IMG/VR virus record: IMGVR_UViG_3300017975_000001
Strand: one strand, 5' to 3'
Length of the DNA stretch: 64,000 nt
DNA from: an uncultured virus (IMG/VR IMGVR_UViG_3300017975_000001)
Lineage: Duplodnaviria > Heunggongvirae > Uroviricota > Caudoviricetes
This document shows, one piece after another, positions 1-12,586 of the stretch. The position numbers and the translations under genes were made by a program. The notes beneath the pieces are model-generated. The model was not told where the DNA came from and made no database searches. It worked only from the letters and a program-made list of their open reading frames with translations. Within the stretch, counting starts at the first letter, position 1, and each line of letters opens with the position of its first letter.

Positions 1-1296
1 GCCTGTTGGACCTGTTGATCCTGTATCGCCCGTCGATCCTGTTGGACCGATACTTCCTGTCGGACCGGTTGATCCTGTATCGCCGGTGTCGCCGGTACTG
101 CCTGTTGGGCCTGCCGATCCTGTTGGTCCTGTTGATCCGCTGTCTCCTGTTGGACCGGTCGATCCCGTATCGCCTGTTGGACCAGTGCTGCCTGTATCGC
201 CTGTCGGACCAGTCGATCCGGTATCGCCTGTTGGACCGGTGCTGCCTGTGTCGCCCGTCGGCCCAGTAGATCCTGTGTCGCCCGTCGGCCCAGTAGATCC
301 TGTATCGCCCGTCGGCCCAGTAGATCCTGTGTCGCCCGTCGGCCCAGTAGATCCTGTGTCGCCCGTCGGCCCAGTAGATCCTGTGTCGCCCGTCGGCCCG
401 GTTGATCCAGTGTCACCAGTAGATCCGCTGTCTCCAGTTGGACCAGTCGATCCTGTATCGCCCGTCGGCCCAGTAGATCCTGTGTCGCCTGTTGGGCCAG
501 TCGATCCTGTGTCGCCCGTCGGTCCTGTTGATCCGCTGTCTCCAGTTGGACCAGTCGATCCTGTGTCGCCCGTCGGCCCAGTAGATCCTGTGTCGCCTGT
601 TGGGCCAGTCGATCCTGTGTCGCCCGTCGGCCCAGTAGATCCTGTCGGTCCTGTCGATCCTGTATCGCCTGTCGCTCCAACACTTCCTGTTGGTCCGGTC
701 GATCCGGTGTCGCCTGTTGGTCCGGTACTGCCAGTGTCACCTGTTGATCCTGTTGGACCGGTCGATCCTGTGTCGCCTGTCGGCCCAGTCGAACCTATGT
801 CACCTGTTGGTCCGGTACCGCCTGTATCGCCTGTTGGACCAGTGCTGCCTGTGTCTCCAGTCGGTCCGGTCGATCCGGTGTCACCTGTTGGTCCTGTCGA
901 TCCAGTATCGCCCGTCGGTCCTGTCGAGCCGGTCGATCCTGTGTCGCCCGTCGGCCCAGTAGATCCTGTGTCGCCTGTTGGACCGGTACTGCCAGTGTCA
1001 CCTGTTGGACCGGTACTGCCAGTGTCGCCTGTTGGACCGGTACTGCCAGTGTCGCCTGTTGGACCAGTACTTCCCAGCGCTCCGGTATCGCCCGTCGATC
1101 CTGTTGGACCTGTATCACCTGTCGCTCCAGTGTCACCCGTCGCTCCGGTGTCGCCCGTCGCTCCCGTCGATCCCGTTGGCCCAGTTGCACCGGTAACACC
1201 GGTCGCTGGACCGGTTGGTCCGATAGGTCCAGTCGGTCCTGCAGCACCGGTAGCGCCAGTCGCTCCGGTACCTGGATTGATAATTCTGACAGTCAC
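1..1296 (-). CDS. Collagen-like (G-X-T)n fibre protein, 3' end runs off the window
   Basis: The minus strand reads GTG start [29 protein letters not shown]... then about 400 aa of GPT/GDT/GST triplets with no stop to position 1, and GAGG lies just upstream. It is missing from the ORF track because its stop is outside the window. Confidence 0.9.
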
Positions 1297-1318
1297 GCCG
1301 CCTCAATCACAAACACCG

Positions 1319-1708
1319 TTAAACTGCCTCAGTCGTAAACACTAAACCTGCACCGGCGCTTTCGCTGACTGCCCAAATCTCCTGTTTACTGACGAACGGC
1401 TCGTCAAGGATCATCACGCCGTCAGGAACCAGCCGTACACCTGTTGTCGGCGTTACGCCTTTGACGCCAACTCGCACATTGATTGACCCGACATTTTGAA
1501 TGATTCCGGTTTTGCGCCGATGATTGGCGGCTAATACAGGCACAGCCACAGCGCCTGTAACTGTCTCCGTACCGTTGGCAAGAAACGATACGCCAGGCTC
1601 TACCTCGACGGGATATTTAAGCGCAGCAACTACGGCAAAGTCTTCTTTCGACGGATGATCGTCACGAATCGTCGGAGAAGAGACGATCGCCTTCGCCGGA
1701 TCAGGCAT
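1319..1708 (-). CDS. Small beta-sandwich (jelly-roll-like) putative minor virion protein
   Basis: 129 aa, beta-rich, with the pattern [20 protein letters not shown]...GVRLVPDG...IWAVS. Similar to 3723..4034. Confidence 0.5.
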
Positions 1709-1737
1709 ACGTGAAGGTTACCATGACGTTAGCTGTC

Positions 1738-1753
1738 GATCGCAGCCGCGATC
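1738..1753. promoter_or_regulatory. GATC-N8-GATC palindromic box between divergent virion genes
   Basis: GATCGCAGCCGCGATC, overlapped and followed by GATCGCGCTTGCATTAGTGCT, which nearly matches 6168-6189. Confidence 0.65.
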
Positions 1754-1797
1754 GCGCTTGCATTAGTGCTGTCTATGTACGATCTTTTCGAGCAGGC

Positions 1798-2622
1798 ATG
1801 CGAGTCAGGAAAAAGCGCTTTGTCAAACCCAAGCTTCGCCGTACGGACGGCCAAGTTGCGCTAGCTCGCGCAAACGACGAAGCGATAGTCGTTAACGCGC
1901 CTGTCGAAATTAGCGCGACGGCGTTGGTTGTCGGTGTTCTGTTGTTGGCGGGCGTGAGCGGTTTCATCGCCTATCTGTTGCTTCGCAAAGACAGGGAGAA
2001 AGATCGGCCAGACCGCGGACAAGCTGGGTTGGGCCAAGCAGGTCAGCTACCACCACCATCTGTCTATCTGATTCAAACAGACAATGGAACCACCGTGACT
2101 CGCACTGAACCGCGGCAGCTCAACTACGAACCTCAACCACCTCAGCCGACGTCCATCAGATTCGATCCTGAAGTTTCACAAACGCTAGACCGCGTCGGGA
2201 CAAAACTTCAAACCATCGCTTCACGTCTCGATCGAATACCAAAAGCTTCGATCTTCACTACGTATCGACTACCATTTCTCGGCGATCCAGAAGCCGGCGC
2301 AATTCGGCTAGCTACATCCAACAACGTGCCCTACGAGGTCACTGTACGAGTAGTAGGGCCACCAGGAGGGATGGCAGCACTCGCGTTCGATCCTGTTCCT
2401 TTGAACGTTCCACAGCCGTTGATATTTCCTGCTAATCATTTCTCACACATACCGGCAGGCGACGTCATCATCATTCCAGCTGGGCAATTTCAAACTATCC
2501 GAATGACGCCGAGGCAAGCGTTATTCGGCAAAGGCAACATGGGCCCTAAGCATCCTACTGGGCCTGTAGTCGTATCGATTATCGGAGCCGACTTCATGGC
2601 TTCGATCGATATGCCACCTTGA
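1798..2622 (+). CDS. Membrane-anchored putative virion protein (basic leader, TM helix, C-terminal beta domain)
   Basis: The in-frame ATG at 1798 gives MRVRKKRFVKPKLRR, then TM ALVVGVLLLAGVSGFIAYLLL, a QAGLGQ motif and a C-terminal domain resembling 3723..4034. The ORF track starts it at 1711. Confidence 0.6.
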   Translation: MRVRKKRFVKPKLRRTDGQVALARANDEAIVVNAPVEISATALVVGVLLLAGVSGFIAYLLLRKDREKDRPDRGQAGLGQAGQLPPPSVYLIQTDNGTTVTRTEPRQLNYEPQPPQPTSIRFDPEVSQTLDRVGTKLQTIASRLDRIPKASIFTTYRLPFLGDPEAGAIRLATSNNVPYEVTVRVVGPPGGMAALAFDPVPLNVPQPLIFPANHFSHIPAGDVIIIPAGQFQTIRMTPRQALFGKGNMGPKHPTGPVVVSIIGADFMASIDMPP

Positions 2623-2632
2623 TCTAAGGCGC

Positions 2633-3034
2633 CTACGGCGCTGTTGGCTTGTGTGCTTGCAGCCACGGCAATGAGAGAGTTGCCGAAACACGCCGCCAAG
2701 CTCCTCGTACACGGCGCGTGCGCGGAGCGCGAGGTCCATTGGATTTTTGGATTTCCAAAAGTACGCGATCGCCCGCTTGCACCTGGCCACGATGCTTTTT
2801 TGGCAAGGCGAACATTACAGATGTTGGATGAGGGCGCACCGCTGCTTTGAAGTGCTCCTCGCCGAGTTTGACGTCGAGCCAACGTCCGGTCCATCCCAGA
2901 TGCACGAGCCCACGAATGATCGCAGCTGGGACTGCTACGCGTAGTCCTCGCCCGTCGCCTTCTCCACGGACGATGACTTCAACACTAAAAATGCCGTTAC
3001 TCGGAATGATCGTCCGTACGATTCGTCTCGGCAC
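2633..3034 (-). CDS. Putative AbrB/swapped-hairpin-like DNA-binding protein
   Basis: Two similar half-motifs, LRVAVPAAI and VMFALPKKHR...AGDRVLLEI, plus a basic C-terminus. Confidence 0.35.
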   Translation of the reverse strand: MPRRIVRTIIPSNGIFSVEVIVRGEGDGRGLRVAVPAAIIRGLVHLGWTGRWLDVKLGEEHFKAAVRPHPTSVMFALPKKHRGQVQAGDRVLLEIQKSNGPRAPRTRRVRGAWRRVSATLSLPWLQAHKPTAP

Positions 3035-11589: not shown

Positions 11590-11599
11590 CGCAGTAGTA

Positions 11600-11631
11600 G
11601 ATCGCGCACGCGATCGCTTTTGTGTTAGCCT
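11600..11631 (+). promoter_or_regulatory. GATC box plus TAGCCT -10-like element
   Basis: GATCGCGCACGCGATC-GCTTTTGTGT-TAGCCT, ending 6 nt before ATG 11638. Confidence 0.7.
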
Positions 11632-11637
11632 TGTCGC

Positions 11638-11934
11638 ATGCGCAGGTTACGTCCCTATCGCTCTCACTACCGCCACGGACTTGGTGCCGCTCCCGCATGT
11701 AGAGCGCGCTGGACTGGCTGGGACCTTGTCGTCACAGCGTCAACGATTGCAGTAAGTGCATTCCTTGGCGGTGGTGCCGTCTATCTCATGACACCCGCGG
11801 ATAGTGAGGATCGCACGCTCAACACGGTTACGGGTGCCATCATGGGCAGCGCGCTAGGCGCCACATTGGCCCGGACCGAAATGGACTCGAACCGTGTACG
11901 TCAATTGACCGAGTGCATGGCTGCTGGCGAGTGA
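11638..11934 (+). CDS. Arg-leader, Cys-bracketed glycine-zipper hairpin protein 1
   Basis: MRRLRPYRSHYRHGLG-AAPAC, two Gly/Ala-rich TM segments, and a Cys near the C-terminus. Confidence 0.7.
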   Translation: MRRLRPYRSHYRHGLGAAPACRARWTGWDLVVTASTIAVSAFLGGGAVYLMTPADSEDRTLNTVTGAIMGSALGATLARTEMDSNRVRQLTECMAAGE

Positions 11935-11964
11935 TCGCGCACGCGATCACTTTTGTGTTAGGCT
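11933..11964 (+). promoter_or_regulatory. GATC box plus TAGGCT -10-like element
   Basis: GATCGCGCACGCGATC-ACTTTTGTGT-TAGGCT, ending 7 nt before ATG 11972; nearly identical to 11600-11631. Confidence 0.7.
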
Positions 11965-11971
11965 CTAACAC

Positions 11972-12259
11972 ATGAAGCGACTCCGCCCTTACCGCCCTCA
12001 TCGCCGTCATTCTTTTGGCGCTGCTGCCGCGCATCCAGCCTGTGCAACCAGCGAACGTTGGGTTCGTGGCGGTCTCGGCTTCCTCCTCGGCACGATGATC
12101 GGCAGCACCGTTGGTGCTGGAATAGCGACTGTCACCGCTACCCAAGAGATAGTGCACGAGGAAAAACTCAAGACCTGGCCCATGTGGCTCGCCTCTGGAT
12201 TGACGATCGTTGGCGGCGTTGGCGGTGCACTCTTGGGCGCGCGCAAGCCGGCGTGCTGA
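11972..12259 (+). CDS. Arg-leader, Cys-bracketed glycine-zipper hairpin protein 2
   Basis: MKRLRPYRPHRRHSFG-AAAAHPAC, GLGFLLGTMIGSTVGAG zipper, second zipper, ends KPAC. Confidence 0.7.
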   Translation: MKRLRPYRPHRRHSFGAAAAHPACATSERWVRGGLGFLLGTMIGSTVGAGIATVTATQEIVHEEKLKTWPMWLASGLTIVGGVGGALLGARKPAC

Positions 12260-12586
12260 GTGACACGACGTCGACAAAGACGTCTTGGTGACCACACTGC
12301 GACCTCCACTTTTTGGCGGCAACGCAAAGGCGCTATCGATATCGCCTGCGCACAGAGTTCACGCGCTTTGCGCGGCACTCTAGGATTTGCTGCTGGCGGT
12401 GCACTACTCGGTGGCGTCACATGGAGCATCATGAATCTGATCGATCGCGGCATGGCGCGCCGTCTCGATGCAGTGCCACCGACATTCACGACGAGCTTCA
12501 AGAACGCATCCGCGGGCATCGCGATCACTGCAATCATCGGTGGCAGTGTGGGCGCAATCGCGTTCGCCGCAACGCCACAGTGCTAA
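12260..12586 (+). CDS. Arg-leader, Cys-bracketed glycine-zipper hairpin protein 3
   Basis: MTRRRQRRLG-DH...IAC, GTLGFAAGGALLGG zipper, ends TPQC. Confidence 0.65.
   Translation: MTRRRQRRLGDHTATSTFWRQRKGAIDIACAQSSRALRGTLGFAAGGALLGGVTWSIMNLIDRGMARRLDAVPPTFTTSFKNASAGIAITAIIGGSVGAIAFAATPQC

Follow-up and report, generated by a model that had tools for sequence, protein, structure and literature searches.

What kind of particle is encoded by a large viral genome in which no terminase, portal or HK97-type capsid gene is recognisable? This question is raised by positions 1-12,586 of a 64,000-nucleotide stretch of DNA (the window) from the uncultured virus record IMGVR_UViG_3300017975_000001, listed as Caudoviricetes in IMG/VR. 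The window is part of a contig of 77,852 bp, 13.85 kb of which lie outside the analysed stretch. The original prediction, made from the DNA letters, had taken these positions for the virion module of a large tailless, membrane-containing virus rather than of a tailed phage. We favour a tailless virus with jelly-roll proteins because a core pair of genes co-occurs and adjoins in related records, because hallmark genes of tailed phages were not detected, and because the core protein is predicted to adopt a jelly-roll fold. With a probability of about one half, the DNA comes from a member of an undescribed lineage of large temperate viruses of bacteria, in which small jelly-roll proteins, and not the HK97/portal/terminase set, make up the particle. 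In what follows, genes of the window are named after their first position, and related records carry G numbers.

A profile of the 5211 protein matched four IMG/VR records, G001 (221 kb), G002 (91 kb), G003 (196 kb) and G004 (95 kb), and gave no match among PDB sequences or genome contigs. These records share a conserved block of about 60 kb, and the window module corresponds to one end of it. The best-kept protein of the block (90-92% identity) is encoded by a 249-aa open reading frame (ORF) at G001 72831-73580. Its family comprises 437 homologues and 230 cluster representatives, showing that the lineage is abundant in metagenomes. With a profile of this family, 16 IMG/VR records of 39-221 kb were found, to which the module genes are common. 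Direct terminal repeats are present in six of the 16 (G005, 137.9 kb; G009, 81.5 kb; G010, 85.7 kb; G011, 77.5 kb; G013, 85.3 kb; and G016, 85.2 kb). Such repeats are missing from G001-G004, for which completeness was estimated by CheckV. All related records are classed as viral by IMG/VR, and their gene content includes polymerases, ribonucleotide reductase (RNR), ThyA, integrase, M23/SLT lysins, homing endonucleases and inteins. Literature searches, whose coverage did not extend to subscription journals, returned no description of such a lineage.

The 235-249-aa protein is probably the main jelly-roll shell protein, as suggested by its predicted structure. Among 104 representatives of the family, no PHROG family and no meaningful Pfam family was matched, profile searches against PDB sequences gave no match, and neither the 50,697 phage records nor the 72,556 plasmid records searched contained a match. 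Structure models were calculated with AlphaFold2 (AF2) for two proteins, the 5211-6164 product of the window and the 249-aa protein of the relatives. The model of the latter, based on 63 sequences, had a predicted local distance difference test score (pLDDT) of 71 and a predicted template-modelling score (pTM) of 0.70 and displayed long strands and one helix. In Foldseek searches its best match was the capsid protein of Sulfolobus polyhedral virus 1 (SPV1; 6oj0_A, E 6e-3, probability 0.99), followed by many capsid proteins of small viruses. Capsid, vertex or scaffold proteins of non-tailed viruses accounted for 44 of the 50 rows, the others being two tailed-phage cement proteins, one tail fibre and three monooxygenase rows. 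Among Pfam-bearing clusters of the ESM Atlas, the nearest carry the PM2 P2 and PRD1 P3 families, with scores of 0.76-0.77, which are leads only.

The second member of the core pair lies inside the window at 3156-3692 and is a candidate for a probable second shell or vertex protein. Homologues of the 3156 protein and the capsid candidate occur together in all 16 IMG/VR records. In each of the 12 smaller records (12/12), the capsid candidate is followed on its own strand by the 3156 homologue at a distance of 79 bp to 2.9 kb, and in G001-G004 the two are 8-14 kb apart. The pair is also close together in the chromosome of a Gemmatimonadota metagenome-assembled genome (MAG; G017) and on a contig (L068) of an Actinomycetes MAG. 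The 3156 protein had no match in Pfam, PHROG or PDB sequences (best PDB row invasin, E 0.7), and its ESM Atlas model is of low confidence (pTM 0.63), with matches limited to unnamed viral clusters. In G001, a group I intron (RF00028, 71.8 bits, E 1.4e-17) at 86763-87084 on the plus strand (L009 14763-15084) splits the 3156 homologue into 86671-86790 and 87111-87533. Phage introns favour highly conserved genes, and the presence of the intron thus fits a highly conserved 3156 family. An HNH endonuclease gene (G001 85543-86532) adjoins the split homologue. Also, a diverged paralogue of 3156 (E 1.5e-10) is encoded at G001 191749-192186 on the minus strand, directly upstream of a DUF87/HerA-like ATPase gene (189878-191599). 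Such a paralogue upstream of the HerA-like gene was not found in G003, and an apparent fusion of a 3156-like domain to the HerA-like ATPase in G003 was an artefact of ORF calling.

A 3723-type protein follows 3156 in all lineages. By jackhmmer, two G009 proteins each contain two copies of the 3723 domain and G016 has a single copy, these proteins coming immediately behind the 3156 homologue, and residues 179-290 of the 1711 protein, which has homologues of 38-44% identity in G001-G004, match the same family. At least four small beta-sandwich proteins or domains had been proposed originally. The respective genes are conserved, and 3723 and the C-terminus of 1711 turned out to represent one homologous domain; for 3156 the proposal met with a low-confidence model without a named match. 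The 1319 family, which includes 134-aa and 184-aa paralogues in the relatives, matched no Pfam family.

Among the window ORFs, neither the 112 searched against Pfam nor the 115 searched against PHROGs gave a terminase, portal, HK97 capsid, tape measure or sheath, in agreement with the first reading of the sequence. We extended the family searches to six-frame translations of 14 records, seven of which are at least 90% complete, and control genomes were matched in each search. Large terminase families were absent from these records (Terminase_6N PF03237, TerL_ATPase PF03354 and Terminase_3 PF04466, 0/14; Terminase_6C PF17289, 0/4), as were the portal families Phage_portal PF04860 and SPP1_portal PF05133 (0/14 each) and Phage_sheath_1 PF04984 (0/14). 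Phage_capsid PF05065 was found in 0/4 records, and no PHROG head family was matched by 227 ORFs of G001 and 130 ORFs of G009. PHROGs v4 and Pfam may miss very divergent proteins. In G001, where 227 ORFs (120 + 107) were compared with PHROGs and 92 with Pfam, no head, portal or tail family was obtained, and the scans gave instead genes for replication, nucleotide metabolism, lysins, homing endonucleases, inteins and Cas proteins. The sole PHROG portal-family match in G001 is on a NUDIX domain, and the sole match to a 'terminase large subunit' is on the P-loop of the DUF87/HerA-like ATPase. An ORF at G001 197356-198324, with a Walker A motif at residue 21, was considered as a terminase and rejected as Sak4-like. 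PHROG tail matches were limited to compositional fibre families and to tape-measure families that matched an M23-type peptidase domain. Also observed in G001 were at least 12 HNH endonuclease genes, a 758-aa protein with an intein and a DNA polymerase carrying a LAGLIDADG insert, and at its right end (217805-221421; L017 9805-13421) genes for a Cas3 HD-domain protein and Csd1, resembling type I-C.

These data bear on the explanation that the window comes from a very divergent tailed phage of the Caudoviricetes. Positions 1-12,586 would then be a tail-fibre end followed by a lysis/envelope cassette, the hallmark proteins would be beyond the reach of Pfam and PHROGs, and the jelly roll would belong to a cement, decoration or fibre protein. 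Eight hallmark families were tried, six of them with 0/14 records and two with 0/4, and the tail-fibre matches are largely compositional. The explanation is weakened mostly by G009, which is complete by its direct terminal repeats and 88% coding under table 11. No hallmark gene was found in G009 when 130 ORFs were compared with PHROGs and 90 with Pfam. The families detected were PolA, primase-helicase, exonuclease, helicase, ThyA, dCMP deaminase, integrase, M23 and SLT lysins, MoxR/VWA, thioredoxin, DnaJ and, at the Pfam cut-off, a transglutaminase-like protein. Seven of the eight ORFs of at least 400 aa could be assigned (TnpB-like, VWA, MoxR, PolA, helicase, exonuclease and primase-helicase), the TnpB-like assignment being weak (E 7e-4, below the Pfam cut-off), and the eighth encodes a 613-aa coiled-coil protein. 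Since the ORFs of at least 400 aa in G009 are assigned save for the coiled-coil protein, no ORF of typical terminase or portal size is left over. Walker A motifs occurred in G009 in MoxR and in the primase-helicase only. We regard a divergent tailed phage as the main rival explanation, though as a rather unlikely one.

For the tailless jelly-roll virus, a packaging enzyme was sought as well. No FtsK-HerA/A32 ATPase was found among the window ORFs with Pfam. In the 14 records, A32 PF04665 was absent (0/14), FtsK PF01580 was above cut-off in none (one weak match was below it), and DUF87 PF01935 was found in three (G001, G003 and G014). The DUF87 genes sit elsewhere than the capsid-gene region, the HerA-like gene of G001 being located among replication genes, and no P-loop protein was detected near the capsid genes of G009 and G016. 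The HerA-like ATPase of G001 (DUF87; phrog_2666, 'terminase') was rejected as the packaging enzyme of the group, as only three of 14 records have it. Its relatives in the phage database are two unverified contigs, one of which (MT836346) carries genes for DUF7007, HATPase and glyoxalase proteins and no capsid gene. With no ATPase common to the group, packaging is unexplained under every model. According to the original prediction, the major capsid gene and the packaging ATPase may lie outside the window; a capsid candidate was found in the relatives, and an ATPase of the FtsK-HerA type is not common to them. This result also speaks against an overgrown PRD1/PM2-like or P23-77-like virus (Varidnaviria or the single-jelly-roll Helvetiavirae), which would possess an internal membrane and an FtsK-HerA motor at a unique vertex. 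Membership in these groups fails on the ATPase, and we consider it improbable.

Features of the window are compiled in the following table.

Table. Genes of the virion module (positions 1-12,586) and selected genes of the remaining window; related records are indicated by G numbers.
Feature	Positions	Strand	Remarks
Collagen-like fibre gene, 5' part	1-1296	-	N-terminus at 1296; leaves the window at its left end
Small conserved protein, 129 aa	1319-1708	-	phmmer and jackhmmer matches in G001-G004 and G017
Membrane-anchored protein	1711-2622	+	Basic N-terminus, one transmembrane segment (residues 72-90), C-terminal domain homologous to 3723-4034
Conserved protein, 133 aa	2633-3034	-	60-66% identity to ORFs of G002, G003, G004
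Core protein, 178 aa	3156-3692	+	77 homologues
Small domain protein, 103 aa	3723-4034	+	53-59% identity in G001-G004
Fibre/spike protein	4044-5126	+	Conserved N-terminal ~110 aa, short collagen-like stretch, variable Gly-rich C-terminal domain
Two-domain all-beta protein (predicted)	5211-6164	+	AF2 model, pLDDT 92.5
Three small conserved proteins	6379-6597, 6527-6820, 6827-7129	+	Homologues in G001-G004; two with clear transmembrane segments
Gln/Pro-rich protein, 163 aa, weakly conserved	7136-7627	-	phmmer matches in G001, G003, G004
Thioredoxin-fold protein	7669-7992	-	PF00085, E 2e-6; 51-54% identity in G001, G003, G004
Repeat protein, 734 aa	8129-10333	+	Four internal ~130-aa repeats, long Pro/Ala-rich linker, C-terminal transmembrane segment (680-698)
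C-terminally membrane-anchored protein	10168-11133	+	Transmembrane segment 290-308
Five small genes	11138-11392, 11389-11589, 11638-11934, 11972-12259, 12260-12586	+	Four transmembrane or Gly-zipper-like
MoxR-type AAA+ ATPase, DUF2201 metallopeptidase-like/VWA protein and 243-aa protein	35939-39033		
Tyrosine integrase	62757-63812	-	PF00589, phrog_1; homologues of 28-45% identity in G001, G003, G004, G009

ORF calling was naive and took either the longest frame or the conserved one. Homologues in G001-G004 were found by BLAST and phmmer for 1319, 1711, 2633 (minus strand), 3156, 3723, the N-terminus of 4044, 5211, 6379, 6527, 6827, 7136 (minus), 7669 (minus), 8129, 11389, 11972 and 12260, indicating that the module genes are real and not chance ORFs. 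The conserved minus-strand gene at 2633-3034 had been overlooked in the first reading; it matched no Pfam family. Two competing frames were rejected, namely the plus-strand ORF 2-1345 (PVGPVD...), which is the mirror frame of the minus-strand collagen gene, and ORF 3074-3679, an alternative or mirror frame of the 3156 gene. GC content at third codon positions was uninformative as a guide to the strand at the GC content of the window. By megablast, the DNA of the window did not match deposited phages, nor does it match a deposited plasmid, and an exact 40-mer search gave nothing in viral or metagenome contigs.

Fibre-like proteins border the core genes. The collagen fibre of the original prediction is present and is encoded on the minus strand from position 1296 off the left end; its sequence is 33% Gly and contains 133 G-X-Y triplets without interruption. 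It matches 36 PHROG families, mostly 'tail fiber', because of its repeat composition. The Gly-rich spike was likewise borne out at 4044-5126 (PF21722 Gly_rich_2, E 1e-7, in Pfam; phrog_863, E 1e-17, and PHROG tail-fibre families), and its conservation in the relatives is limited to the N-terminus. In G009, three tandem paralogues of about 250 aa are encoded on the minus strand at 42336-44611 (L059 6336-8611), far from the capsid-gene cluster.

The 5211 protein, whose family has 46 members (the window copy being the one on the 77,852-bp contig), is probably an outer or host-recognition protein and not the major capsid protein, judging from its model. Its C-terminal domain (residues 195-317) is predicted to be a lectin-like sandwich of jelly-roll type and in structure searches matched Ena endospore appendages, XepA/YomS and lectins. 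A structural comparison of 5211 with capsid proteins, suggested along with the original prediction, spoke against a capsid role, as the Foldseek rows to PRD1 P3 and infectious bursal disease virus (IBDV) VP2 had TM-scores of 0.13-0.20 and the VIA alignment spans residues 195-317 only. According to the model, 5211 has a lectin-like jelly-roll head and is not a double jelly-roll capsid protein either.

Membrane proteins are numerous in the module. Kyte-Doolittle windows of at least 1.6 were used to call transmembrane segments in 20 genes, and eight clear transmembrane proteins were obtained: 1711, 6527, 6827 (two segments), 8129 (C-terminus), 10168-11133 (C-terminus), 11138 (two segments), 11638 and 12260. 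With two weaker candidates recognised by eye, 6379 and 11972, the total of 8-10 agrees with the about ten that had been noted originally. More transmembrane proteins adjoin the capsid candidate in G001 and G009. These transmembrane proteins are indirect evidence of a virion membrane; the tailless part of the original prediction is favoured by our data, and its membrane stays a conjecture. Homologues of 11389, 11972 and 12260 occur in G001, G003 and G004, the 11389-11589 product being soluble and conserved. The thioredoxin noted originally is present, and thioredoxins are also encoded within the modules of G009 (66775-67092) and G017. The repeat of the 8129 protein matches paralogues of 200-240 aa in G001, G003 and G004, and in G001 it takes the form of three adjacent, separate genes of about 220 aa (92734-94775). 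PHROG matches of 8129-10333 are weak (baseplate, E 0.005; endolysin, E 0.007). The 10168-11133 ORF had no family in Pfam or PHROG, and its true start is probably later because it overlaps the end of 8129-10333.

In the remaining window, accessory genes encode a RecT-like protein, endonuclease VII, a methyltransferase and phosphatases, and no tRNA was found in the window. Long overlapping ORFs on opposite strands, 12783-14252 (minus, 489 aa) and 12903-14708 (plus, 601 aa), had no family match and no homologue in the relatives. The integrase, with its homologues in the relatives, fits a temperate lifestyle. The MoxR/VWA trio recurs in G001, G003 and G009 and in the probable provirus of Gemmatimonadota described below, is partial in G004, and is among the very few P-loop genes common across the lineage; it might conceivably take part in assembly.

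The 4.74-Mb chromosome of a Gemmatimonadota MAG (G017/L067, about 3,658,600-3,719,540) contains at least 61 kb of genes of the group. This region carries the capsid candidate, a 3156 homologue, the MoxR/VWA trio, a thioredoxin and a fibre protein of 1351 aa, and its embedding in the chromosome suggests a provirus and provides a lead to the host phylum. A chromosomal copy and an integrase would also be found if the module served no virion at all and encoded surface or secreted structures of a large integrative element or plasmid that forms no particles of its own. The resemblance of the 5211 C-terminus to Ena appendages, XepA/YomS and lectins, the BclA_C-like paralogues in G009 and the lack of a detected packaging enzyme are in line with this explanation. 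Against it stand the six records with direct terminal repeats, the classification of all records as viral by IMG/VR, the 235-249-aa protein without plasmid match, and the presence of phage-style nucleotide metabolism, lysins and homing endonucleases. The extreme conservation of the core protein and its matches to capsid-type folds fit a shell better, and we consider a module without virion function very improbable.

Several observations count against a tailless virus with a shell of jelly-roll proteins. A profile of the 249-aa family found no capsid candidate in the six frames of the window, the fold scores for the jelly-roll match are weak, and the ESM Atlas labels the nearest clusters as Uroviricota. 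Sequence profiles can fail to recognise capsid proteins of the HK97 fold, and for the contig itself the hallmark scans cover the 64,000 nucleotides of the window. The collagen-like and Gly-rich proteins match PHROG 'tail fiber' families, two fibre paralogues of G009 match BclA_C (C1q/TNF-like head) weakly (E 3e-5 and 1e-5, below the Pfam cut-off), and the transmembrane proteins of the window could be holin, spanin or envelope proteins. Also, a double-stranded DNA genome of 80-220 kb without a recognisable motor is hard to explain with any model.

Taking these points into account, we infer a capsid role for the core proteins, a tailless particle, a membrane and a mode of packaging as follows. 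Positions 1-12,586 would be the distal part of a gene block for the virion (particle and envelope) of a temperate double-stranded DNA virus, in a lineage of about 78-221 kb. The shell would be built of small jelly-roll proteins, the main one being the 235-249-aa protein encoded outside the window. The 3156 product, encoded beside it, would be the probable second shell or vertex protein, and proteins with the 3723-type domain (3723 and the C-terminus of 1711) would probably be part of the shell too, with 1319 listed among the small domain proteins. The collagen-like protein, the Gly-rich 4044 protein and the lectin-like 5211 protein would point outward as fibres or spikes and serve to recognise the host. 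The transmembrane proteins, the thioredoxin and the 8129-10333 repeat protein would be components either of a membrane inside the virion or of an envelope/lysis cassette. In its fullest form the proposal is a tentative one: a widespread temperate lineage of 78-221 kb with hosts including Gemmatimonadota, with tailless and probably membrane-lined single jelly-roll capsids, and with packaging that employs neither a terminase-portal system nor an ATPase of the FtsK/A32 type.

To our knowledge, the large or jumbo bacterial viruses described so far are all tailed phages with the HK97 fold. In a word search of the text of a 2026 review on jumbo phages (PMC13282480), the words tailless, non-tailed and jelly-roll were absent. 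If our reading is true, these would be by far the largest prokaryotic jelly-roll viruses and possibly a new taxon of high rank. Large genomes in prokaryotic viruses would then not be tied to the HK97/terminase/portal machinery. There would be a parallel to the giant jelly-roll viruses of eukaryotes, and the packaging of genomes of this size in the absence of a known motor would become a concrete question. As the lineage includes genomes complete by direct terminal repeats and a chromosomal provirus, the question is directly testable.

How does this lineage compare with known systems? Viruses of the P23-77, Haloarcula californiae icosahedral virus 1 (HCIV-1) and SH1 type have genomes of about 17-31 kb, in which the gene for an FtsK-HerA ATPase adjoins those for the capsid proteins. 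In contrast to these Helvetiavirae with two single jelly-roll capsid proteins, the present lineage has no common ATPase and genomes that are 3-10 times larger, and the second protein (3156) has no confidently predicted fold. It also differs from PRD1 and PM2 (Tectiviridae and Corticoviridae), as the capsid candidate is of single-jelly-roll size, 5211 is not predicted to be a double jelly roll, and no A32/FtsK ATPase was found. According to Yutin et al. (2018; PMC5894146), the genomes of double jelly-roll viruses of prokaryotes measure roughly 7-18 kb. The difference from large or jumbo Caudoviricetes is that neither the scans of the 14 records nor that of the whole of G009 detected a terminase, a portal, an HK97 capsid protein, a sheath or another tail family. 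The similarities to these phages consist in genome size, DNA polymerase, RNR, inteins, homing endonucleases, MoxR/VWA and collagen-like/Gly-rich fibres, and in the case of G001 also CRISPR-Cas. The closest structural counterpart of the 249-aa model is the capsid protein 6oj0 of SPV1, a member of the Portogloboviridae.

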